Positions 1,079-44,753 of a stretch of 44,753 nucleotides of DNA are shown piece after piece (positions within the stretch are counted from its first letter, which is position 1; each line of letters opens with the position of its first letter). The notes beneath the pieces are model-generated. The model did no database searches and was not told where the DNA came from. It saw nothing but the letters and a program-made list of their open reading frames with translations. The DNA is from a virus. Its lineage: Duplodnaviria > Heunggongvirae > Uroviricota > Caudoviricetes. Both the position numbers and the translations under genes were made by a program. The stretch lies in the IMG/VR virus record IMGVR_UViG_2917860307_000001, positions 1 through 44,753 of that record, one strand, 5' to 3'.

Positions 1079-1351
1079 TTAGTTATATTTTTGTTTATCC
1101 GTTCTGACCTTTTCCCACTCAGCTCGTCCTTCTTCTCGTCTTTTGTCTATGTATTCCGCAAGATCCTGAATATTGATGCAACGTTTTGCTTTTTGTGATG
1201 TGCCGATGCGATATGTTGGAACAGGTAACTTACAAGCATTTGCTTTTGCTTCTGCTGTGGCTGGACTCATACCAAAGTACTTTTGGCTAACTGCTGAGAG
1301 TTCAATGTTTGGGGTATTGAATTCAGCCATCAGTAAAAACAAGGTGTTCAT
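1079..1351 (-). CDS. PrtN-family / excisionase-like DNA-binding protein
   Basis: Start chosen at MNTLFLLMAEF (ATG at 1351, GGAG RBS upstream); sequence pattern of PrtN/excisionase-like prophage proteins. Confidence 0.55.
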   Translation of the reverse strand: MNTLFLLMAEFNTPNIELSAVSQKYFGMSPATAEAKANACKLPVPTYRIGTSQKAKRCINIQDLAEYIDKRREEGRAEWEKVRTDKQKYN

Positions 1352-3345: not shown

Positions 3346-4170
3346 TCAGGCGGTGAAAGTACCAATAAAGGTTTCTACTTTGCTGTCTTTGAATTTCTCA
3401 ACAAGCAGATCACGAAATTCGTTAGCCATTTCTTCCTGCACCGCTTCCAGCTGAATAATGCGCAGAACCAGTACAGGACGATCGCCAGTGATAATGCTGA
3501 GGCGTAATTTAAACGGACGTTCTTTCAGGCCTTCAAACGGAACGCATTTAAATTCAAATGCCACTGGCATAATGTCTTTGGTTTTCGCTTCGACAGACTC
3601 CATCAGGGAGCGTTTGCCGCTGAAGTCATTATCTTCAAAATCAGCGGTCTGGTTTGCTTCAATCGTGATTTTACGGACCGCCGCAGCCGCTTTTGTTGCC
3701 TGAATAGCGTCACCATTAGCATCAAAGCCCACAAGATAGTCGGCCCAGTCTTCAATCCATTCTGCCAGTGACTTCTGGGAGTTACGCTCGCCGTTAACAG
3801 ACAACAGAGCAGAGAACGGTGCTGTCTTTTTCAGTTTGAGAGTGGCGGTGTTATCTGCGTGACCTGGTTCATCAATAGTACCCAGGTTAAGCACACTGAC
3901 GGCTCGCATATTATCGGCATCGATAAAGCAGCGGGTGCCTTCATCTGCAAGATCTTTAGAATAACGGGTAAAGTCATCGATGCTGGCAGTGGAAAGCGCA
4001 CCACGGAAACGGAAGCGATTTAAATTAAATTTTTCCAGATCATGAATGCGGAAATTCTCAGGCAATGCCACAGCATCGGCACCAATCTTACTGATAATTT
4101 CATTAACACCCTGAGCAGAAATAAGGGCATGGATTTGATTAATTGCGGTTGCGTCTAAGTTCTGAGACAT
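3346..4170 (-). CDS. yfdQ: YfdQ-like protein (DUF2303)
   Basis: 274-aa ORF; size and sequence character match the prophage YfdQ family (from memory). Confidence 0.55.
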
Positions 4171-5266: not shown

Positions 5267-5941
5267 TTAGGCCTTTATTTTGTATCTTCTTGGTTTTCCC
5301 GAGAAAATCACTGTACCAATTATAGAGCAATTACCGTTGATCTTAATGTAAGGTTCAGGCCAGTTTGGGTTTAATGCTTTGAGGTAACGCTGTGTTCCAT
5401 CTTCTATCAACCGCTTGAAGGTGGTTTCGCCTGTATCGTGCATCAATGCAATAACGTCGTCACCGTGGCAGGCAGGGACTTCAGGATCAACAAAAATCAT
5501 GTCTCCCGGGCGGTACTCATCAATCATTGAATCACCAATCACCCGCAAGATATAAGTCATTTCGCCACAGGGTACAGGGCAGGGATAAGTTTCTGCTGTG
5601 CTCAAATCAACCTCAGAATAGCCAACTTCTTTCCATGCTCCGGCCTGTACCCATGATATGACAGGGACTAACGTTATTTGTTTGTTAGTGATTGAAACAT
5701 CAGGTTTTTTTGTGATGTTCGTTGTCTGGTGTTCTTGATCAAGCCATCCGACAGGCAGGTCGAAACATTTTTCGATGTGCCGTGCCATGCTGTCACCGAT
5801 ATTTTTAGTTGCACCATCTCCCATAAACCTGCTGGTCTGGGTTGGCTCGCGATCAATCATGGTGGCAAAGGAAGAATTCCCGCCAACACCATCTCTCAGT
5901 TTTCTGGCGTTAGACCGCCGGATGTCATGGACTGTTTTCAT
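5267..5941 (-). CDS. cI: CI-like repressor (HTH plus S24 LexA-like peptidase domain)
   Basis: 224 aa; N-terminal HTH region, C-terminal GDSM...catalytic-type motif; divergent from cro-like gene. Confidence 0.8.
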   Translation of the reverse strand: MKTVHDIRRSNARKLRDGVGGNSSFATMIDREPTQTSRFMGDGATKNIGDSMARHIEKCFDLPVGWLDQEHQTTNITKKPDVSITNKQITLVPVISWVQAGAWKEVGYSEVDLSTAETYPCPVPCGEMTYILRVIGDSMIDEYRPGDMIFVDPEVPACHGDDVIALMHDTGETTFKRLIEDGTQRYLKALNPNWPEPYIKINGNCSIIGTVIFSGKPRRYKIKA

Positions 5942-11377: not shown

Positions 11378-12373
11378 GTGACCGTGAGAGCACTACTGAC
11401 CCCTGAAATTGCCCCGCGTATGGGGATCGTATTGTTCAGGCCAGGTTCAGAGCTGATGCCCCTGTTTATGCAGGGGCGTGTCCTGCTGGAGCCTGAGCCG
11501 GAACGTTATTCATCTTTCGCCAGTGGTGCCGTTCCGGCGGCATCACAACCGCTGGCGGATGATCCTGCCGTTCGGGCCGTGTTCCGCAATGAGGCAGTGA
11601 TCCGTCGTGCTGGTGGCGTGGAATGTCTTGAAAGCTGGTTACTTCGTGAAAAAGGCTGCCAATGGCCTCATTCCGACTGGCACAGCGAGAACATGACCAC
11701 AATGCGACACGCTCCGGGCGCAATCCGTCTGTGCTGGCACTGCGATAACCAGCTGCGCGATCAGTTCACGGAACGGCTGGAATCAATGGCAACGGATAAC
11801 TGTGCCCGCTGGGTGTTGTCTGTAGTCCGTCGGGATCTCGGTTTTGATGATAACCATGCCGTGACAATGCCGGAACTGTGCTGGTGGCTGATTCGTAATG
11901 ACCTGGCGGATGCCTTACCTGAAAGCGCAGCCCGTAAGGCGCTGAGATTACCGAAACCTGCTGTGCCGTCTGTCACCCGGGAAAGTGACCTTGTGCCTTC
12001 GGTTCCTGCCACCAGCATCATCCAGGATAAAGCGAAAAATGTGCTGGCGCTGAAAGTGGATCCGGAGTCGCCGGAGTCTTTTATGTTACGCCCAAAACGC
12101 CGCCGCTGGGTTAATGAAAAGTACACGCGCTGGGTTAAGACACAGCCGTGTGCATGTTGTGGAAAGCCTGCTGATGATCCCCACCACCTGATAGGCCACG
12201 GTCAGGGTGGAATGGGTACAAAAGCGCATGACCTCTTTGTGTTGCCTTTGTGCAGAAAGCATCACGACGAGCTGCATGCGGATACCGTGGCATTTGAAGA
12301 GAAGTATGGCTCTCAGCTGGAGCTGATATTTCGTTTTATCGATCGTGCGCTGGCAATTGGCGTATTGGCGTAA
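11378..12373 (+). CDS. DUF968 domain protein
   Basis: GTG start; C-terminal Cys/His cluster PCACCGKPADDPHHLIGHG...LPLCRKHHDELH typical of DUF968 nin-region proteins. Confidence 0.6.
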   Translation: MTVRALLTPEIAPRMGIVLFRPGSELMPLFMQGRVLLEPEPERYSSFASGAVPAASQPLADDPAVRAVFRNEAVIRRAGGVECLESWLLREKGCQWPHSDWHSENMTTMRHAPGAIRLCWHCDNQLRDQFTERLESMATDNCARWVLSVVRRDLGFDDNHAVTMPELCWWLIRNDLADALPESAARKALRLPKPAVPSVTRESDLVPSVPATSIIQDKAKNVLALKVDPESPESFMLRPKRRRWVNEKYTRWVKTQPCACCGKPADDPHHLIGHGQGGMGTKAHDLFVLPLCRKHHDELHADTVAFEEKYGSQLELIFRFIDRALAIGVLA

Positions 12374-12386
12374 GTGGAGAACGAGC

Positions 12387-12941
12387 ATGAACCTTGAAGC
12401 CTTACCAAAATATTACTCCCCAAAATCTCCAAAATTGAGCGATGACGCACCGGCGACAGGCTCAGGTGGTTTAACGATTACGGATGTGATGGCTGCGCAG
12501 GGGATGGTGCAGTCGAAAGCACCGCTTGGGTTTGCCTTATTCCTGGCAAAAGTTGGTGTTCAGGATCCTCAATTTGCGATTGAAGGTCTGCTCAATTACG
12601 CGATGGCACTGGATAACCCGACATTGAACAAATTGAGTGAAGAAACCCGGTTACAGATCATCCCTTACCTTGTGAATTTTGCCTTTGCTGATTATTCCAG
12701 GTCTGCGGCAAGTAAGGCTCGCTGTGAGCATTGTGCTGGTACTGGATTTCATAATGTATTGCGCGAAGTGGTGAAACACTCCAGAAGCGGGGAATCTGTT
12801 ATCAAGGAAGAGTGGGTGAAGGAACTATGTCAGCATTGCCATGGTAAGGGAGAAGTCAGCACAGCGTGCAGAGGGTGTAAGGGTAAAGGTATTGTCCTGG
12901 ATGAAAAAAAGAACCCGGCTTCATGGTGTGCCTGTTTATAA
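12387..12941 (+). CDS. Antitermination protein Q (as read, terminates early; see downstream +1-frame fragment)
   Basis: Start MNLEALPKYY (ATG 12387); three CxxCxGxG zinc-finger repeats; position upstream of PR'-like promoter and lysis genes. Confidence 0.6.
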   Translation: MNLEALPKYYSPKSPKLSDDAPATGSGGLTITDVMAAQGMVQSKAPLGFALFLAKVGVQDPQFAIEGLLNYAMALDNPTLNKLSEETRLQIIPYLVNFAFADYSRSAASKARCEHCAGTGFHNVLREVVKHSRSGESVIKEEWVKELCQHCHGKGEVSTACRGCKGKGIVLDEKKNPASWCACL

Positions 12942-18661: not shown

Positions 18662-19156
18662 ATGGATCGAGAGTTAAAAAATCTGACGCTGAATATCAGT
18701 CAACTGGCGGCACTGTCAGGTGTACATCGCCAGACTGCTGCGGCAAGGCTGCAAAATCTACCCGTTGCAGGGGGGCATGAAAGCAACCTCAAGCTTTATC
18801 GGGTGGTTGATATTGTGTCGGCATTTCTGGCATTACCACCGCCGGTTGCAGAAGGCGAAATGGACGCGCATGAGCGCAAAGCCTGGTATCAGTCTGAACG
18901 TGAGCGTCTTAAGTTCGAACAGGAAACGGCACAACTCATTCCGGCCAGTGATGTCAGACGGGAGTTTGCCATCTGGGCAAAAGCGGTCGTGCAGGTGCTG
19001 GAGACATTACCGGATATTCTTGAACGTGACTGCGGTCTGCAGCCTGCCGCTGTGAGCCGTGTTCAGTCCATTATTGATGATCTGCGCGATCAGATAGCCC
19101 TGCGGGTGACTGAAGCAGGTGCGGATGATGAGGAGGAATTACAGCAGGAGGAGTAA
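18662..19156 (+). CDS. Terminase small subunit
   Basis: 164 aa, N-terminal HTH-like segment (LTLNISQLAALSGVHRQTAAARL), directly upstream of and overlapping terminase large subunit. Confidence 0.7.
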   Translation: MDRELKNLTLNISQLAALSGVHRQTAAARLQNLPVAGGHESNLKLYRVVDIVSAFLALPPPVAEGEMDAHERKAWYQSERERLKFEQETAQLIPASDVRREFAIWAKAVVQVLETLPDILERDCGLQPAAVSRVQSIIDDLRDQIALRVTEAGADDEEELQQEE

Positions 19157-21258
19157 TGCTGAATCAGGAAACCGCAAAGGCAGCACGAACCGATTCAGGT
19201 TATATCCTTCGCGCACCGAGACGAATGCGGGTTGCTGATGCCGTTGCTCAGTATATGCGGGTGCCCATGGGGGCAGGGAACTCAGTCCCGTGGGATCCGC
19301 TGGTGGCACCGTATGTTATTGAGCCGATGAACTGCCTGGCCTCGCGTGAATACGACGCAGTGATATTTGTTGGCCCGGCACGAACCGGCAAGACTATCGG
19401 CCTGATTGACGGCTGGGTGATTTACAACGTGATTTGCGATCCTGCTGATATGCTGATTATTCAGATGACGGAGGAAAAAGCCCGCGAACACTCCAAAAAA
19501 CGACTCGCCAGAACGTTTCGCGTCAGCCCGGAAGTGGTCAGTCGCCTGAGTCCGAACAAAAATGACAACAACGTTTATGACAGAACATTCCTTGCTGGTA
19601 ACTACCTGAAAATCGGCTGGCCGTCAGTCAATATCATGTCCTCATCAGATTATAAATGCGTCGCGCTGACGGATTATGACCGTTTTCCGGAAGATATTGA
19701 TGGCGAGGGGGATGCTTTCTCTCTTGCCTCAAAACGTACCACAACATTTATGTCCAGTGGTATGACGCTGGTGGAGAGTTCCCCCGGCAGGGATGTGAAG
19801 GATGTGAAATGGCGACGGACTTCACCGCATGAGGCTCCACCAACCACGGGGATACTATCGCTCTATAACCGTGGCGATCGCCGTCGCTGGTACTGGCCCT
19901 GTCCACACTGTGGTGAGTATTTTCAGCCCTGCGGCGATGTGGTTGCTGGTTTCCGTGATATTGCCGATCCCGTGCTGGCAAGTGAGGCGGCTTATATTCA
20001 GTGTCCTTCCTGTTCAGGACGGATTATGCCTGAACAAAAACGTGAGCTGAACGGACGTGGGGTCTGGTTGCGGGATGGTGAATCCATCAATGCGGATGGC
20101 AGTCGTTATGGTGATCCCCGACGCTCACGTATTGCGTCATTCTGGATGGAGGGTCCGGCAGCTGCTTACCAGACACTCTCGCAACTCGTTTACAAACTGC
20201 TTACTGCAGAACAGGAATACGAGACAACCGGAAGTGAAGAAACACTCAAGACGGTTATCAATACCGACTGGGGATTACCTTATCTTCCCCGCGCCAGCAT
20301 GGAGCAACGAAAAAGTGAACTGCTTGAGCAGCGGGCAGAGCCAGTTCCTTCCCGCAGTGTGCCGGATGGCGTTAATTTCCTTGTGGCGACAGTGGATGTG
20401 CAGGCGGGACGTCATCGCCGTTTTGTGGTTCAGGTAACGGGCTATGGCAGCCGTGGCGAACGCTGGATTATTGATCGTTACAACATCACGCAGTCATTGC
20501 GCGGTGACAGCGACGGGGAGAGCCAGCGAATTGATCCGGCCAGCTATCCGGAAGACTGGGATGTCCTGCTGACGGATGTTTTTCATAAAAGCTGGCCGCT
20601 GGCCTCCGATCCTTCTCAACAAATGCGACTGATGGCAATGGCGGTGGACTCCGGCGGTGAAGACGGGGTCACTGATAATGCCTATAAATTCTGGCGTCGT
20701 TGCCGTCGTGATGGCCTTGGTAAACGTATTTACCTGTTTAAGGGCGACAGCATCCGGCGCGCAAAACTGATCACCCGTACATTCCCTGATAACACCGGAC
20801 GAACGGGCCGACGGGCGCAGGCCGCAGGTGATGTGCCGCTCTGGCTTCTTCAGACGGATGCACTGAAAGACCGGGTGAATAACGCGTTATGGCGTGACTC
20901 GCCAGGTCCCGGCTATGTGCATTTCCCTGACTGGCTGGGGAGCTGGTTTTACGACGAACTGACGTATGAAGAGCGGAGCAGTGACGGGAAATGGAGTAAG
21001 CCGGGTCGCGGTGCCAACGAAGCTTTTGACCTGATGGTGTATGCCGAGGCTCTGGTCATTCTGCATGGATACGAAAAGATCCGCTGGCCGGATGCACCGG
21101 AGTGGGCGAGCCGGGAAACCTGGCTGGAGTGTGTCCCGGACAGTACCGAACCGTCACCCTCACCGGAACCGGTATCCACGCCTGTTAAAAAACAAAAACG
21201 GAAGAAAACAGTAACTGACGATGTTAACCCCTGGCTGACTTCCGGAGGATGGTTATGA
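19156..21258 (+). CDS. Terminase large subunit (GpA family)
   Basis: 700 aa; Walker A-like GPARTGKT; overall lambda gpA-like organisation. Confidence 0.9.
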   Translation: MLNQETAKAARTDSGYILRAPRRMRVADAVAQYMRVPMGAGNSVPWDPLVAPYVIEPMNCLASREYDAVIFVGPARTGKTIGLIDGWVIYNVICDPADMLIIQMTEEKAREHSKKRLARTFRVSPEVVSRLSPNKNDNNVYDRTFLAGNYLKIGWPSVNIMSSSDYKCVALTDYDRFPEDIDGEGDAFSLASKRTTTFMSSGMTLVESSPGRDVKDVKWRRTSPHEAPPTTGILSLYNRGDRRRWYWPCPHCGEYFQPCGDVVAGFRDIADPVLASEAAYIQCPSCSGRIMPEQKRELNGRGVWLRDGESINADGSRYGDPRRSRIASFWMEGPAAAYQTLSQLVYKLLTAEQEYETTGSEETLKTVINTDWGLPYLPRASMEQRKSELLEQRAEPVPSRSVPDGVNFLVATVDVQAGRHRRFVVQVTGYGSRGERWIIDRYNITQSLRGDSDGESQRIDPASYPEDWDVLLTDVFHKSWPLASDPSQQMRLMAMAVDSGGEDGVTDNAYKFWRRCRRDGLGKRIYLFKGDSIRRAKLITRTFPDNTGRTGRRAQAAGDVPLWLLQTDALKDRVNNALWRDSPGPGYVHFPDWLGSWFYDELTYEERSSDGKWSKPGRGANEAFDLMVYAEALVILHGYEKIRWPDAPEWASRETWLECVPDSTEPSPSPEPVSTPVKKQKRKKTVTDDVNPWLTSGGWL

Positions 21259-33594: not shown

Positions 33595-36500
33595 ATGGGT
33601 AAAGGCAGCAGTAAGGGGCATACCCCGCGAGAAGCGAAGGACAACCTGAAATCCACGCAGTTGCTGAGTGTGATTGATGCCATCAGTGAAGGGCCGATTG
33701 AAGGTCCGGTGGATGGATTAAAAAGCGTGCTGCTGAACAGTACGCCGGTGCTGGACACTGAGGGGAATACCAACATCTCCGGTGTCACAGTGGTGTTCCG
33801 GGCAGGTGAGCAGGAGCAGACTCCGCCGGAGGGATTTGAATCCTCCGGCTCCGAGACGGTGCTGGGTACGGAAGTGAAATATGACACGCCGATCACCCGG
33901 ACCATCACGTCTGCAAATATCGACCGTCTGCGCTTTACCTTCGGTGTGCAGGCACTGGTGGAAACCACCTCAAAGGGGGACAGGAATCCGTCGGAAGTCC
34001 GCCTGCTGGTTCAGATACAACGTAACGGTGGCTGGGTGACGGAAAAAGACATCACCATTAAGGGCAAAACCACCTCGCAGTATCTGGCCTCGGTGGTGGT
34101 GGATAACCTGCCGCCGCGACCGTTCAATATCCGGATGCGCAGGATGACACCGGACAGCACAACAGACCAGCTGCAGAACAAAACGCTCTGGTCGTCATAC
34201 ACCGAAATCATCGATGTGAAACAGTGCTACCCGAACACGGCACTGGTCGGCGTGCAGGTGGATTCGGAGCAGTTCGGCAGCCAGCAGGTGAGCCGTAATT
34301 ATCATCTTCGCGGGCGCATTCTGCAGGTGCCGTCGAACTATAACCCGCAGACGCGGCAATACAGCGGTATCTGGGACGGGACGTTTAAACCGGCATACAG
34401 CAACAACATGGCCTGGTGTCTGTGGGATATGCTGACCCATCCGCGCTACGGCATGGGGAAGCGTCTCGGTGCGGCGGATGTGGACAAATGGGCGCTGTAT
34501 GTCATCGGCCAGAATTGCGACCAGTCGGTGCCGGATGGCTTTGGTGGCACGGAGCCGCGCATCACCTGTAATGCCTACCTGACCACACAGCGTAAGGCGT
34601 GGGATGTTCTCAGTGATTTCTGCTCGGCGATGCGCTGTATGCCGGTATGGAACGGGCAGACGCTGACGTTCGTGCAGGACCGACCGTCGGATAAGGTGTG
34701 GACCTATAACCGCAGTAATGTGGTGATGCCGGATGATGGCGCGCCGTTCCGCTACAGCTTCAGCGCCCTGAAGGACCGCCATAATGCCGTTGAGGTGAAC
34801 TGGATTGACCCGAATAACGGCTGGGAGACGGCGACAGAGCTTGTTGAAGATACGCAGGCCATTCTCCGTTACGGTCGTAACGTCACGAAGATGGATGCCT
34901 TTGGCTGTACCAGCCGGGGGCAGGCACACCGCGCCGGGCTGTGGCTGATTAAAACGGAGCTGCTGGAAACGCAGACCGTGGACTTCAGCGTGGGTGCAGA
35001 AGGGCTTCGCCATGTACCGGGCGATGTCATTGAAATCTGTGATGATGACTATGCGGGTATCAGCATCGGCGGGCGCGTGCTGGCGGTGAACAGCCAGACG
35101 CGGACACTGACGCTCGACCGTGAAATCACGCTGCCATCCTCCGGCACCACGCTGATAAGCCTGGTTGACGGACAGGGGAATCCGGTCAGCGTGGAGGTCC
35201 AGTCCGTCACCGACGGCGTGAAGGTGAAAGTGAGACGGGTTCCTGACGGCGTTGCAGAATACAGCGTGTGGGGGCTGAAGCTGCCGACGCTGCGCCAGCG
35301 CCTGTTCCGCTGCGTGAGTATCCGTGAGAACGATGACGGTACGTATGCCATCACCGCCGTGCAGCATGTGCCGGAGAAAGAAGCCATCGTGGATAACGGG
35401 GCGCACTTTGACGGCGACCAGAGCGGCACGGTGAATGGTGTCACTCCGCCAGCAGTGCAACACCTGACCGCAGAAGTCACCGCAGACAGCGGGGAATACC
35501 AGGTGCTGGCGCGCTGGGATACGCCGAAGGTGGTGAAGGGCGTGAGCTTTATGCTTCGCCTGACCGTGGCAGCGGATGACGGCAGTGAGCGGCTGGTCAG
35601 CACGGCCCGGACGACGGAAACCACATACCGCTTCAGGCAGCTGGCTCTGGGAAATTACAGTCTGACAGTCCGGGCGGTAAATGCGTGGGGGCAGCAGGGC
35701 GATCCGGCGTCGGTATCGTTCCGGATTGCCGCACCGGCAGCGCCATCGCGGATTGAGCTGACGCCGGGTTATTTTCAGATAACCGCCACGCCGCATCTTG
35801 CGGTTTATGATCCGACTGTACAGTTTGAGTTCTGGTTCTCGGAAAAGCGGATTGCGGATATCAGGCAGGTTGAAACCACAGCCCGCTATCTTGGCACGGC
35901 GCTGTACTGGATAGCCGCCAGTATCAATATCAAACCGGGCCATGATTATTATTTTTACGTTCGCAGTGTGAACACCGTCGGCAAATCGACATTCGTGGAG
36001 GCTGTCGGTCGGGCGAGCGATGATGCGGAAGGTTACCTGGATTTTTTCAAAGGCCAGATAACCGAATCCCATCTCGGCAAGGAGCTGCTGGAAAAAGTCG
36101 AGCTGACGGAGGATAACGCCAGCAAACTGGAGGAGTTTTCGAAAGAGTGGAAGGACGCCAACGATAAATGGAATGCCATGTGGGGCGTCAAAATTGAGCA
36201 GACCGAAGACGGCAGGCATTATGTCGCGGGGCTTGGCCTTAGTATGGAGGATACGGAGGAAGGCAAACTGAGCCAGTTCCTGGTTGCCGCTAACCGTATC
36301 GCGTTTATTGACCCGGCAAACGGGAATGAAACGCCGATGTTTGTGGCGCAGGGCAACCAGATATTCATGAACGAAGTGTTCCTGAAGTATCTGACGGCTC
36401 CCACCATTACCAGTGGCGGCAATCCGCCGGTATTTTCCCTGACACCGGACGGGCGGCTGACGGCGAAAAATGCCGATATCAGCGGTAACGTGAATGCGAA

Positions 36501-36993
36501 CTCCGGGACGCTCAATAATGTCACGATTAACCAGAACTGTCGGATTCTGGGAAAACTGTCTGCCAACCAGATTGAAGGTGATATTGTCAAAACGGTGGGA
36601 AAAGCCTTTCCGAGAAATGGCAGTTATGCCAGCGGTACAATAACGGTCACTGTGTACGATGACCAGGCTTTTGACCGTCAGATAGTAATCCCACCCGTTC
36701 TGTTTCGCGGTGGTAAGCATGAAAACTTCAACAGCAACAACCAACAGTCATACTGGTATTCAACCTGTAAGCTGCAGGTGCTGAAGAACGGACAGGAAAT
36801 CTTTCAGCAACCCGCGACGGATGTCAGCAGGGTATTTTCATCCGTCATTGATATGCCTGCCGGACACGGTCATGTCACCCTGACTTTCAATGTTTCTTCA
36901 TATGGTGCTAATAACTGGACGCCAACGACCAGTATCAGCGACCTTCTTGTTGTCGTGATGAAGAAATCAACAGCCGGTATCAGTATCAGTTGA
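33595..36993 (+). CDS. Tail tip / host specificity protein J
   Basis: 1132 aa, same length as lambda gpJ with strong similarity over the N-terminal and central regions. Confidence 0.9.
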
Positions 36994-41409: not shown

Positions 41410-41433
41410 AGGGGCCGAGCGCCCCGTTTTATT
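41410..41433 (+). terminator. Hairpin/T-run after fibre gene
   Basis: GGGGC-CGAGC-GCCCC followed by GTTTTATT. Confidence 0.4.
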
Positions 41434-41733
41434 GGGTAGGATGAAAATGGATATAACACCCTTACTTCATGCACTTTGTGCTGTGGCTGCGCAGCTACTG
41501 ATTGGTCTTTTTACCGGGAACTGGGCTTACGGAGCGATAGCCGGTTGTACGTTCTTCATTGCGCGTGAACACACCCAGGCAGAATATCGCTGGATTGAAA
41601 TGTTCGGACATGGCAAGCGTATGAATATGCGTGGTGGGGCGGTTTTGATCCGCGCGTGTGGGATGTAGCAAGCCTGATGGATTTTGCTGTGCCGGTGATG
41701 GCGTGTCTGCTGGTCTGGCTGTTTATCCGTTAA
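41432..41733 (+). pseudogene. Small membrane protein, frame interrupted near a G4 run (41636-41639)
   Basis: 78-aa ORF ends at 41668, while a protein-like hydrophobic C-terminus (FDPRVWDVASLMDFAVPVMACLLVWLFIR) continues in the adjacent frame to 41733. Confidence 0.4.
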
Positions 41734-41843: not shown

Positions 41844-42092
41844 TTAATGAACAAACCACTCGTCAGCAGACTCCCAGGTATCTTTCAGAGTTTCCTGAAC
41901 AAAAGTTTTAGCTGAATCTTTATCGGCGGTGCGCGTAACAGAAAGGCCATCGTTGCTGGTGGCTTTTACGATCACCTCTACATCGTCATAACGCTTACTG
42001 ATGCGTCGAGTTAATTCTTCCTTCAACGCATCCACAGCACCGTTTGGCATTTTAGTCATTTTCTCTTTGGCTATGCAGATCTCAATACGCAT
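41844..42092 (-). CDS. dinI: DinI-like DNA damage-inducible protein
   Basis: 82 aa; MRIE..IAK...P.GA.DAL..EL.RRI......V....A..N.LSV......D......ETWESAD.WFV pattern matching DinI. Confidence 0.75.
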
Positions 42093-42105: not shown

Positions 42106-42125
42106 TACTGTGTTTGTATACAGTA
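42106..42125. promoter_or_regulatory. LexA (SOS) box upstream of the dinI-like gene
   Basis: TACTGT-GTTTGTAT-ACAGTA, a CTGT-N8-ACAG palindrome 14 nt upstream of the dinI-like start. Confidence 0.6.
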
Positions 42126-42153
42126 TTATTTTTAACTGTATGAATAAACAGTG

Positions 42154-43251
42154 TCAAGAGGTCTTATTTCTGCTCCTTTGGAGTTCTTCAAAACGATTAT
42201 GTAAAGATTTTGGATACAGTTCGGTATATACCTGCCATAGCACGTTTAATGAACGATGCCCTGTAACCTGGGCGACTTCCTCAATACTAAAACCAGCCTC
42301 AAATAAGCGACTTGCCCCTTCTCTACGCAAATCATGGTATCGCAGATCTTTAATACCTAATTTGCTTCTTACCCTCTGAAATCCTGCGGTAACAGAAGTG
42401 CTGTTGTATGGAAAAATGAATTCAGATTTTTTGGGTTGTCGTTGGACGATATCCCAGGCTTCCCCAAGCAAGGCCACTTTCATATGGTTACCTTCCTTTT
42501 TACGTGGATCTTTCCTGTCTCTTACTAGTATAGATTTTTGTTCCTGGTCGAGATCTTCCCATCGTAACCGGCATACTTCTCCGATTCGCATACAGGACCA
42601 CACAGAAAATTTGAGGATATCAACGAACGGAATTTTTGAGCATTTATGAGTAGATCGTTGTTGAAGGCCTTCAATGAGCATGTCTAGTTCATCAGATGCT
42701 GGTCTACGATTACGACGATTTGATTTACCAATTAAACCAAGTTTAAGTAGATATGGACGAGCGGCTTTTGCTGGGTTTGATGTGTAATTAATTCCGTATA
42801 CAGGTTTGGCTGCATCCAGAACACTGCCAAGATAACTAACATCGTGGCTAACAGTAGCTGGACCTGCACCGGCGTTGTTTCTCAACCTGCAATGTTCTAT
42901 TACGTCATTTTCTGTTAATTCAGATAGTCTGATCGCAGAAATGTCACTATCCATAAGTAGTTCCAGCACATATCTTTTAGTGCGGCCTGCTTTACCTCCT
43001 GCATTTGGATCATTTAAATATTTGTGTAGCAAATCACGGACAGTAAGGCCGTCAATCTCGCTTGATGATGGGATTCCATACAAATCTAGTTCCATCACTT
43101 TCTGTGTACCCCATGTTTTGGCATGAGCATGTTTGGGAAAGGTTTTACTTTCCCTGTAAGTGATGACACCTTTTTCTTTAATAATCACGGTGCAACGATA
43201 GCGTGGTGTGCCATCGGATTTTAGCCGTTTCTCTATGTTATAGTACGCCAT
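42154..43251 (-). CDS. int: Tyrosine integrase (dusA-associated type)
   Basis: 365 aa; C-terminal catalytic-region pattern (R...HDLRR...VTGHRSL...Y); adjacent to and divergent from dusA. Confidence 0.85.
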   Translation of the reverse strand: MAYYNIEKRLKSDGTPRYRCTVIIKEKGVITYRESKTFPKHAHAKTWGTQKVMELDLYGIPSSSEIDGLTVRDLLHKYLNDPNAGGKAGRTKRYVLELLMDSDISAIRLSELTENDVIEHCRLRNNAGAGPATVSHDVSYLGSVLDAAKPVYGINYTSNPAKAARPYLLKLGLIGKSNRRNRRPASDELDMLIEGLQQRSTHKCSKIPFVDILKFSVWSCMRIGEVCRLRWEDLDQEQKSILVRDRKDPRKKEGNHMKVALLGEAWDIVQRQPKKSEFIFPYNSTSVTAGFQRVRSKLGIKDLRYHDLRREGASRLFEAGFSIEEVAQVTGHRSLNVLWQVYTELYPKSLHNRFEELQRSRNKTS

Positions 43252-43339
43252 TACTCAATCTCGTCATTTCAGGTTCCCATGCGTTGTGGGAACCTGTGCG
43301 GGAACCTAACGCGAGAAAAATAGCCTGAAATGTTCAAAA

Positions 43340-44377
43340 ATGCACGATAATCATGAAACACAAAAAATTAATCAAACCAGCGTGATGCCTGAAAAAACTG
43401 GTGTTTACTGGAATTCTCGGTTTAGCATTGCTCCTATGCTCGACTGGACGGACAGACACTGCCGTTATTTCCTGCGTCTGCTCTCCCGTAATACGCTGCT
43501 CTATACCGAAATGGTGACCACAGGGGCGATTATTCACGGTAAAGGTGATTACCTGGCATACAGTGAAGAAGAGCATCCGGTGGCGTTGCAGTTGGGCGGT
43601 AGCGATCCGGCGGCGCTGGCGCAGTGTGCGAAGCTGGCAGAAGCGCGCGGATATGATGAGATCAACCTGAATGTTGGCTGCCCGTCAGACCGGGTACAGA
43701 ACGGCATGTTTGGCGCGTGCCTGATGGGGAATGCGCAACTGGTGGCTGACTGCGTAAAAGCGATGCGCGACGTAGTGTCGATTCCAGTGACGGTGAAAAC
43801 GCGTATTGGCATTGACGACCAGGACAGCTATGAATTTCTCTGTGATTTTATCGACACTGTTTCCGGCAAAGGCGAATGCGAGATGTTTATTATCCATGCG
43901 CGCAAAGCCTGGCTTTCTGGTTTAAGTCCGAAAGAAAACCGTGAGATCCCGCCGCTCGATTACCCGCGTGTCTATCAACTGAAGCGTGATTTCCCGCATC
44001 TGACTATGTCGATTAACGGCGGCATCAAGTCACTGGAAGAGGCTAAAGCACACCTGCAACATATGGATGGCGTGATGGTCGGGCGTGAAGCGTATCAAAA
44101 CCCAGGCATTCTGGCGGCGGTGGATCGAGAGATATTTGGTTCCTCGGATACCGATGCCGATCCGGTGGCGGTGGTACGAGCTATGTATCCGTACATTGAG
44201 CGTGAACTCAGCCAGGGGACGTATCTCGGTCATATCACCCGGCATATGCTGGGGCTGTTCCAGGGGATTCCTGGTGCGCGGCAGTGGCGGCGGTATTTAA
44301 GTGAAAATGCCCATAAAGCGGGCGCTGACATTAACGTGCTGGAACATGCGCTCAAACTGGTAGCGGATAAGCGTTAA
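43340..44377 (+). CDS. dusA: tRNA-dihydrouridine synthase A
   Basis: 345 aa; conserved [17 protein letters not shown]... DusA sequence; first approx 30 residues look prophage-derived. Confidence 0.9.
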
Positions 44378-44459
44378 TTTTTCACCACAAAGTAGTCAAA
44401 TTCACCACGCCCTGCGCTTCGACGCGGGGCGTTTTGTTGATAAATCAATATGTTATTTC

Positions 44460-44476
44460 TGGCATGATTCTTGTAA
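44460..44476 (+). promoter_or_regulatory. Sigma-54 promoter of pspG
   Basis: TGGCAT-N5-TTGT matching the -24/-12 consensus TGGCAC-N5-TTGC, about 35 nt upstream of the pspG start. Confidence 0.55.
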
Positions 44477-44510
44477 AGCCAGCAAGAGATTTCATTTTTG
44501 GGAGAACATC

Positions 44511-44753
44511 ATGCTGGAACTACTTTTTGTGATTGGCTTTTTTGTCATGTTGATGGTCACCGGCGTTTCATTGCTGGGCATTATCGCTGCGCTGGTTGTG
44601 GCGACGGCCATTATGTTCCTCGGTGGGATGCTGGCATTGATGATTAAGTTGCTGCCGTGGCTGCTGTTGGCGATTGCGGTAGTGTGGGTGATCAAGGCGA
44701 TTAAAGCGCCAAAAGTGCCTAAATATCAGCGTTATGACCGCTGGCGTTACTAA
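44511..44753 (+). CDS. pspG: Phage shock protein G
   Basis: 80-aa small hydrophobic protein ending KAPKVPKYQRYDRWRY; located downstream of dusA as in E. coli. Confidence 0.85.
   Translation: MLELLFVIGFFVMLMVTGVSLLGIIAALVVATAIMFLGGMLALMIKLLPWLLLAIAVVWVIKAIKAPKVPKYQRYDRWRY

Follow-up and report, generated by a model that had tools for sequence, protein, structure and literature searches.

The window analysed here, a 44,753-nucleotide stretch of viral DNA (IMG/VR record IMGVR_UViG_2917860307_000001), carries near its right end a phage integrase gene (int) next to the host tRNA-modification gene dusA. We conclude with high confidence that a complete lambdoid prophage resembling mEp460 and phi1720a-02, about 43.75 kb long, sits in the 5' end of dusA in Escherichia cryptic clade II strain E2748. 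Directly observed are its junctions, where each flank comes from, its family membership and its gene content. The finding fixes the prophage boundaries, explains the odd N-terminus of DusA, and names int and rdfN, a gene for a small PrtN-like protein, as the mobility module. The integration strategy and this module are already known, and the finding is in that sense correct but ordinary; only the layout of putative arm-type sites around the attachment site and the reading of the E. coli K-12 dusA start as a fossil of such an element may be new.

A prophage junction within dusA

The window corresponds to PDIF01000060.1:48841-93593 of strain E2748 (GCA_004745355.1), both of its ends having been placed by exact-protein matches. 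E. coli was ruled out as the host, since none of 5426 complete E. coli genomes exceeds 92.5% identity to the host part of the window (43441-44753). Identity of this part is 95.2% to Escherichia sp. E1V33 (across dusA-pspG), 93.4% to E. whittamii and 90.6% to E. albertii.

An earlier note, made from the sequence alone, had described int and dusA as adjacent and divergent, with a full-length DusA whose start departs from that of K-12 while the rest is conserved. All of this holds. The two genes lie on opposite strands on either side of an 88-bp spacer (43252-43339), and dusA (43340-44377, plus strand) encodes 345 aa recognised by Pfam Dus (E = 8e-105) and NCBIfam DusA. Nine of the first 30 residues differ from K-12, as against one of the remaining 315 (Fisher p = 8e-10). 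In the DNA, mismatches to K-12 number 16/90 at the start and 82/948 in the rest; since divergence runs at about 8% all along, the signal is carried by the protein-level contrast.

That divergence throughout dusA, in a host that is not E. coli, is what favours the alternative that the N-terminus of DusA simply reflects normal variation between alleles or species, and that the integrase is a coincidental neighbour. We regard this as extremely improbable, because divergence switches abruptly at a single point, the phage/host junction 43443|43444. To its left, positions 43339-43443 match the phage attachment site (attP) of the free phage SKA5 at 105/105 positions and that of mEp460 at 98/105, and the native short allele of E1V33 at 46/105, which is the random level. 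To its right, the next 120 nt match the E1V33 host at 119/120 positions and the phages at 32/120. Furthermore, the native dusA 5' end is intact at the left attachment site of the prophage (attL), 43.75 kb away. The proposal that a prophage in the dusA 5' end supplies the DusA N-terminus is thus borne out, and the dusA 5' end is far from identical to an unoccupied allele. The interval originally drawn for it, ending at 43440, came within 4 bp of the junction.

The phage-supplied segment (dusA', 43340-43443, plus strand), which is the part that matches SKA5 attP, comprises codons 1-34 plus 2 nt, and the host-derived remainder (43444-44377, plus strand) comprises codons 35-345. GC content is 39% in the former and 54% in the rest of dusA. 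Free genomes of mEp460, SKA5, Lys8385Vzw, 1720a-02, phiSTEC1575-Stx2k and PhiR phages contain int, the spacer and 105 nt of dusA-like sequence at 93-94% DNA identity, and their homology to the window ends at about 43443. The SKA5 annotation calls the same 40-codon open reading frame (ORF) 'tRNA-dihydrouridine'. Conversely, E. coli genomes in which the dusA 5' end is neither phage- nor K-12-type match the window only from 43427 onward.

Alignment to an unoccupied dusA allele, as the earlier note had proposed, located the core of the right attachment site (attR), ATTGCTCCTATGCTCGA, at 43427-43443. This 17-bp block is identical in attP, attL, attR and the host site attB, and covers DusA codons I30-D35, which form the first beta strand of the DusA TIM barrel. 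By this comparison, strand exchange is placed within the core. The slightly offset stretch GCTCCTATGCTCGACTGGA (43430-43448) agrees at 18/19 positions with the published C. rodentium attB of phi1720a-02 (GCTCCCATGCTCGACTGGA).

When the whole window was searched with k-mers from 43200-43560 for a second attachment-site copy, only chance 11-mers came up, which rules out an attL inside the window. As anticipated, attL lies upstream of it: its core was found on the same contig at 5676-5692 of the retrieved segment L090, 309-325 bp before window position 1. This segment was obtained through an exact-protein match of the first ORF, encoding a SocA/Panacea-domain protein, and is 100% identical to the window over positions 1-1400. 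The order at attL is zur, the native dusA start (ATG TCA GCA GAA ...), the 17-bp core and then phage DNA (TAGGATGTATCG...), which is the P' arm of the mEp460 and SKA5 attP. The two ends of the prophage thereby carry semi-conserved direct repeats, ATTGCTCCTATGCTCGAtaGGAtG at attL (L090 5676-5699) and ATTGCTCCTATGCTCGActGGAcG at attR (43427-43450).

In the record of phage Lys8385Vzw, designated circular, 8 bp of attP, ATGCTCGA, occur in tandem duplicate (CCCATGCTCGAATGCTCGATAGG; L004 ~3830-3851). The duplication probably arose as an artefact when a prophage sequence was circularised with both attachment-site copies kept; if so, it marks the overlap that the depositors took as the repeat.

We propose that the integrase recombined the phage attP with host attB inside the 17-bp block. 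The attP lies just upstream of int, and ahead of it the phage carries its own imitation of the dusA start; it is this arrangement by which the native start is displaced and a substitute supplied. Integration has shifted the native promoter and the first ~20 dusA codons 43.75 kb off, to attL, and at attR a presumed phage promoter region and 34 codons are fused in frame to the remainder of dusA, such that a full-length DusA is still encoded. Excision would require Int and the PrtN-like factor from the opposite prophage end (1079-1351), and would give an attP junction ...ATTGCTCCTATGCTCGATAGGATG... (or ...GGTTTAGCATTGCTCCTATGCTCGATAGGATGTATCG...) and a restored zur-dusA attB. Free phage genomes with the corresponding attP, and the excision demonstrated for phi1720a-02, support this indirectly.

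Integrase, mobility module and prophage integrity

The int gene (42154-43251, minus strand) encodes a tyrosine integrase of 365 aa (PF00589, E = 9e-21, residues 189-346). In an alignment of 40 sequences, R222, H306-x-x-R309, H332 and Y342 are invariant or nearly so, accounting for the RHRH tetrad and the nucleophilic tyrosine. Among NCBIfam models, Int gets only sub-threshold Xer and integron matches, so no specific family model covers it. Int is, however, 97% identical over 365 aa to the integrase of mEp460, which has been named among the homologues of dusA-associated integrases (DAIs) (Farrugia et al., 2015, NAR 43:4547), in agreement with the suggestion that it is of a dusA-targeting type.

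Genomic context agrees with this assignment. The identical Int protein, found in 52 index blocks, adjoins dusA in all eight of the contigs listed, and relatives of 64-97% identity flank dusA in five species representatives. Four further homologues (63-71% identity; Salmonella, Gilliamella, Aeromonas and Photorhabdus) adjoin a Dus gene in every case. Int does not belong to a tRNA-targeting family, given that its DAI relatives adjoin dusA and that no tRNA or tmRNA gene was found in the 44.7-kb window. DAI islands are characterised by an integrase gene at the dusA 5' end, 21-bp semi-conserved attachment-site repeats and an element-derived 5' end with a replacement beta-1 strand, and 64% of dusA islands carry a PrtN homologue (Farrugia et al., 2015). 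In the E2748 prophage we see int beside the dusA 5' end, an in-frame 5' replacement, direct repeats and a PrtN-like factor; the last is typical of DAI elements and not strictly defining.

This PrtN-like small DNA-binding protein (1079-1351, minus strand; PF11112, E = 2.9e-23) is encoded at the attL-proximal end. RdfN, the recombination directionality factor (RDF) of dusA-specific elements, is required for their excision (Durand et al., 2021, PLoS Genet 17:e1009669). The rdfN-type gene of the window lies across attP from int, as in the elements of Durand et al., and its product is likely to be an RDF of the RdfN type. The gene stands at the end of the leftward early operon and is presumably under repressor/SOS control.

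The prophage body spans positions 1-43443, its left end lying ~310 bp outside the window, and 43.75 kb is the distance from attL core to attR core. Using PHROGs and Pfam we recognised a CI-type repressor (5267-5941), a Q antiterminator (12345-12941), the large terminase (19156-21258) and tail protein J (33595-36993), as well as an endolysin, a portal protein and side tail fibres. With repressor, Q, lysis, terminase, portal and tail genes all found, the prophage is complete-looking.

One could still read the element as a defective, immobile prophage remnant and the arrangement in dusA as a frozen relic. Decayed elements are common at dusA loci, and at 41432-41733, where sister prophages have a called 95-aa gene, there is no call on the E2748 contig: a 78-aa ORF stops at 41668 and the sequence runs on in another frame to 41733, so that this is probably a frameshifted small membrane-protein gene. 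Yet int, rdfN and the CI-type repressor, Q, lysis, terminase, portal and tail genes are intact, as are both attL and attR, and the identical Int in so many index blocks points to recent spread. A frozen relic is thus unlikely, and an intact prophage remains the preferred reading.

The apparently frameshifted gene near the right end is one of several points that nonetheless weigh against our overall account. Inducibility of the prophage is itself a prediction. M1 and M16 are both candidate dusA starts, and DusA family models align only from residues 19-30. Moreover, the spacer presumably carries divergent promoters for int and dusA, and hybrid dusA would, by analogy with the island IMEVchUSA3 (Durand et al., 2021), be transcribed from a phage promoter, but a promoter scan found no sigma-70 consensus promoter in the 88 bp on either strand; its sole strong hit was the promoter of the phage dinI gene (42157-42128). 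A short A-rich element, GAAAAATA (43315-43322), which all related attP regions conserve ~18-25 nt upstream of the ATG, is a possible -10 box. No consensus terminator was found in the spacer.

Repeats in the attachment-site arms and the K-12 dusA start

The spacer (43252-43339) is phage-derived and represents the P arm of the former attP: it matches the attP regions of mEp460, SKA5 and Lys8385Vzw at 76-78/88 positions, and K-12 or the native allele at 21-26/88. It contains GGGAACC or its complement at 43272-43278 (minus strand), 43288-43294 and 43300-43306. About five copies of the motif would be expected in the 44.7-kb window and four are observed; three of the four falling within 35 bp is far beyond chance. 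The earlier note had seen in GTTCCC/GGGAAC motifs here possible integrase or promoter sites. The first part is supported by comparative evidence; for the second, the scan gave no consensus promoter.

Motif positions are given relative to the GCN (Ala31) core codon. The inverted copy, putative arm-type site P1 (GGTTCCCA, 43272-43279, minus strand), is at -158; putative P2 (TGGGAACC, 43287-43294, plus strand), which keeps its place as the motif changes with integrase lineage, is at -142; and putative P3 (GGGAACC, 43300-43306, plus strand) is at -130. Two more direct copies, 3 nt apart, lie at +56 and +67 in the P' arm of attP and in attL. An inverted P1-type copy occupies the same position in mEp460, SKA5, the records L005 and L018, YeP1, IME1369_02, EKP1, and Salmonella and Photorhabdus elements. 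The 3+2 layout (-158 inverted/-142/-130; +56/+67) is kept across at least 11 elements, and the motif itself varies: it is GGGGTGCT (GGGGTGC class) in Yersinia phage YeP1, TGGTGTCC (GGTGTCC or GGTGTAC class) in Morganella phage IME1369_02, GGTGTAC(T/C) in EKP1, a Pluralibacter prophage and the Salmonella and Photorhabdus elements, and GGGA(A/G)CC in Phytobacter and Kosakonia prophages. The motif set is displaced by ~12 bp in an Aeromonas element, and a Vibrio tectivirus-like prophage has two direct motif copies only.

The N-terminal region of Int varies between motif classes, chiefly in residues 22-35. In an AlphaFold model of Int (mean pLDDT, a per-residue confidence score, 85.6), an N-terminal beta-beta-beta-alpha domain (residues 2-58; strands 2-10, 16-26 and 29-38, helix 41-58, pLDDT ~90) precedes a core-binding and a catalytic domain. 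In a Foldseek search with the whole model, the alignment with full-length lambda Int (1z1g, E = 3e-9; also 1z1b) extended over 364 columns, and those with N-terminally truncated integrases over ~330 only. The five GGGAACC copies are thus probably arm-type sites, bound by the Int N-terminal domain as in lambda. The putative sites coincide with the stretch that has to contain the int and dusA promoters, which makes autoregulation by Int plausible.

The position of the repeats in a divergent promoter region would also suit an operator bound by some other regulator, or a hairpin in the leader RNA of int that controls int and dusA expression. Indeed, the inverted pair GGTTCCCA/TGGGAACC folds as an 11-bp RNA stem in the int leader (z = -2.1 to -2.7), a further point against our reading, and complementarity within the pair is retained as the motif changes between elements. 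For a hairpin, however, the third direct copy in the P arm and the two in the P' arm are superfluous, and fixed spacing to the core is a property expected of recombination sites. Int also shows a lambda-type arm-binding fold in its predicted structure, and no U-tract follows the stem on either strand. We therefore hold an operator or hairpin to be a rather unlikely explanation of the repeats; the two roles can also coexist. An intrinsic terminator at the inverted repeat was considered and rejected, since the stem is stable but the U-tract is missing from both strands.

If the arm-site interpretation is true, the co-varying layout amounts to a natural panel of orthogonal Int/attP pairs directed at one target gene. 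A literature search on arm-type sites in dusA elements returned nothing relevant, which is not proof of absence.

The earlier note had used the K-12 N-terminus as its unoccupied reference. This choice proved unsuitable, in that the K-12 dusA start (MHGNSEMQKINQTSAMPEKTDVHWSGRFSV) is itself of a long, element-supplied type. In roughly 70 of 80 Enterobacteriaceae species representatives the start is of a short, native type (M[LSP][SP]E....[FY][PA]AHRFSIAPM), and none of these has a DAI int as a neighbour. Among them are E. albertii, E. whittamii and the two other Escherichia representatives without a prophage, and in these zur is directly upstream. A long 'MH.N...' start occurs in ~10 loci of the 80 representatives, and at five of them a DAI int lies at a distance of 177-296 bp from the core.

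Several features suggest that the K-12 start is the fossil attR of a dusA-specific element. Divergence of K-12 from the short allele starts exactly at ATTGC, the left core edge. The 93 nt before the K-12 core match element-borne surrogates at 77-80/93 positions (83-86%) and native short alleles at 27/93 (29%), and over 107 nt the K-12 dusA 5' end shares 84% identity with mEp460 attP (E = 1e-28). The K-12 zur-dusA gap is 1.66 kb long and holds yjbL and yjbM/DUF2713, with 34.5% GC versus 52-54% in the flanks (L001 885-2607; compare L007 2880-3075). A series of decay can be followed from an int pseudogene in Intestinirhabdus, through ~25 codons of int with arm sites in Silvania and an int-start relic in Kosakonia pseudosacchari, to K-12. 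A BLAST search for an int relic upstream of K-12 dusA gave nothing beyond a colinear match of 16 nt (E = 8.5), which is not significant by itself.

Both allele types circulate in E. coli. The K-12-type region is present in 4297 of the 5426 complete genomes (~79%), an intact short zur-dusA allele in 1043 (~19%), and an mEp460-type int adjoins dusA in 742; mEp460-like phages are found integrated in both types. The start taken as ancestral for enterobacteria (M.PES.TAFPAHRFSI, with zur nearby) is that of ~19% of E. coli and of all other Escherichia species sampled.

Taken together, the boundary at the core edge, the 84% match to attP, the phylogenetic distribution of the two types and the intermediate stages of decay make it probable that the K-12 dusA start is a fossil attR. 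That phages instead copied a long-type host dusA allele is less likely in view of the patchy distribution of the long type within genera and its association with int. If the fossil interpretation of K-12 is true, the annotation of the reference dusA (start codon, promoter and N-terminus) describes element-derived sequence, and 'unoccupied' K-12-type alleles are poor controls in dusA integration studies. A literature search on yjbM as an island remnant, or on its link to dusA, likewise returned nothing relevant, again without proving absence. The joint proposition, that DAIs of Enterobacterales phages are lambda-like heterobivalent integrases with fixed 3+2 arm sites co-evolved with the N-domain, and that the K-12 dusA start with yjbL-yjbM is a fossil attR, we favour somewhat over its negation.

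Neighbouring genes and relation to known systems

Downstream of dusA lies pspG (44511-44753). The attL end encodes a SocA/Panacea-domain protein (1-474) and, after it, a protein of 182 aa (497-1045) whose C-terminal region is hydrophobic, a pair that resembles antitoxin-toxin or defence pairs of the PanA-PanT type. Ahead of the pair are a perfect TTGACA-N16-TATAAT promoter and a LexA-like box, CTGTGTATATGTACAG (L090 5814-5875, 126-187 bp before window position 1); the pair also lies downstream of the displaced native dusA promoter and is co-oriented with it. At the other end, between int and the tail-fibre region, is a DinI-like gene (41844-42092) into which a near-consensus minus-strand promoter reads (TTGACA at 42157-42152, N18, AAAAAT at 42133-42128). 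Its -35 box overlaps the int stop codon, and two LexA-box-like palindromes, TACTGTGTTTGTATACAGTA (42106-42125) and AACTGTATGAATAAACAGTG (42134-42153), are placed within this promoter and just downstream of it. Phage dinI is probably under SOS control.

DAI modules with unusual companions were seen elsewhere. Elizabethkingia phage EKP1 (L102 1456-2840) has an enterobacterial-type DAI int, dinI, prtN and a dusA' encoding MHQN...; it is closest to a Pluralibacter prophage, and its assignment to an Elizabethkingia (Bacteroidota) host looks doubtful. In a Photorhabdus dusA-specific element (L108/L109 2794-4095), int is followed by genes for an AcrIF11-like ADP-ribosyltransferase and for Cas Csy1, which suggests that this island carries both anti-CRISPR and type I-F CRISPR-Cas components. 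The tectivirus-like prophage Vibrio phage 10N.286.55.E6_PE001 (L101) also has a DAI int and a dusA' surrogate, and between them a LexA-box-like sequence, CTGTATGTTTGTACAG (L101 2630-2650), hints at SOS control of int or dusA' in its lineage.

The closest known counterparts of the E2748 prophage are phi1720a-02 (Stx2dact, KF030445) and mEp460 (JQ182728). For phi1720a-02, experiments have shown integration 100 bp into the dusA gene of C. rodentium, where the phage dusA' is in frame, as well as attP circles (Balasubramanian et al., 2019). The E2748 prophage shares with the two phages the int gene (94% nt identity), the order dinI-int-attP-dusA', the core and the in-frame dusA'. It differs from them in its host, which is cryptic clade II rather than E. 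coli or C. rodentium, in lacking stx genes, in having the SocA/Panacea pair at the attL end, and in the loop between the inverted arm sites. An integration module known as a carrier of Stx phages in E. coli is thereby extended to an environmental strain of Escherichia cryptic clade II.

Comparison with lambda shows both likeness and difference. Int has the same three-domain organisation in prediction, and each arm carries repeated motifs, ~130-160 bp from the core on one side and 55-70 bp on the other. Sequence identity to lambda Int is only 17-18%, however, and int is placed beside the tail-fibre end with attP upstream of it, where lambda has attP downstream; the same non-canonical orientation was remarked for phi1720a-02 (Balasubramanian et al., 2019). 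Unlike lambda, moreover, the E2748 prophage targets a protein-coding gene and brings a coding surrogate, its RDF is PrtN-like and not Xis, and its arm sites are putative. The integrative and conjugative element SXT inserts at the 5' end of another protein-coding gene, prfC, but its integrase specificity and target gene are unrelated.

Rci shufflon recombinases, which have an extended C-terminus and act on sfx repeats in pilV, are said to be the nearest characterised relatives of DAIs (Farrugia et al., 2015); int of the E2748 prophage has no pilV or shufflon context. In IMEVchUSA3, int and the gene for a PrtN-like RDF lie on opposite sides of attP, as they do here, and an element-supplied promoter drives dusA (Durand et al., 2021). 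IMEVchUSA3, in contrast, is an IncC-mobilisable island under AcaCD, and the E2748 element is a lambdoid phage. From the DAI islands as a class the prophage shows no essential difference: it has the recombinase gene at the dusA 5' end, attachment-site repeats at both ends, a new beta-1 strand and a PrtN homologue, and what it would add to their description (Farrugia et al., 2015) is the arm-type sites and the arm-binding domain, which are not described there.

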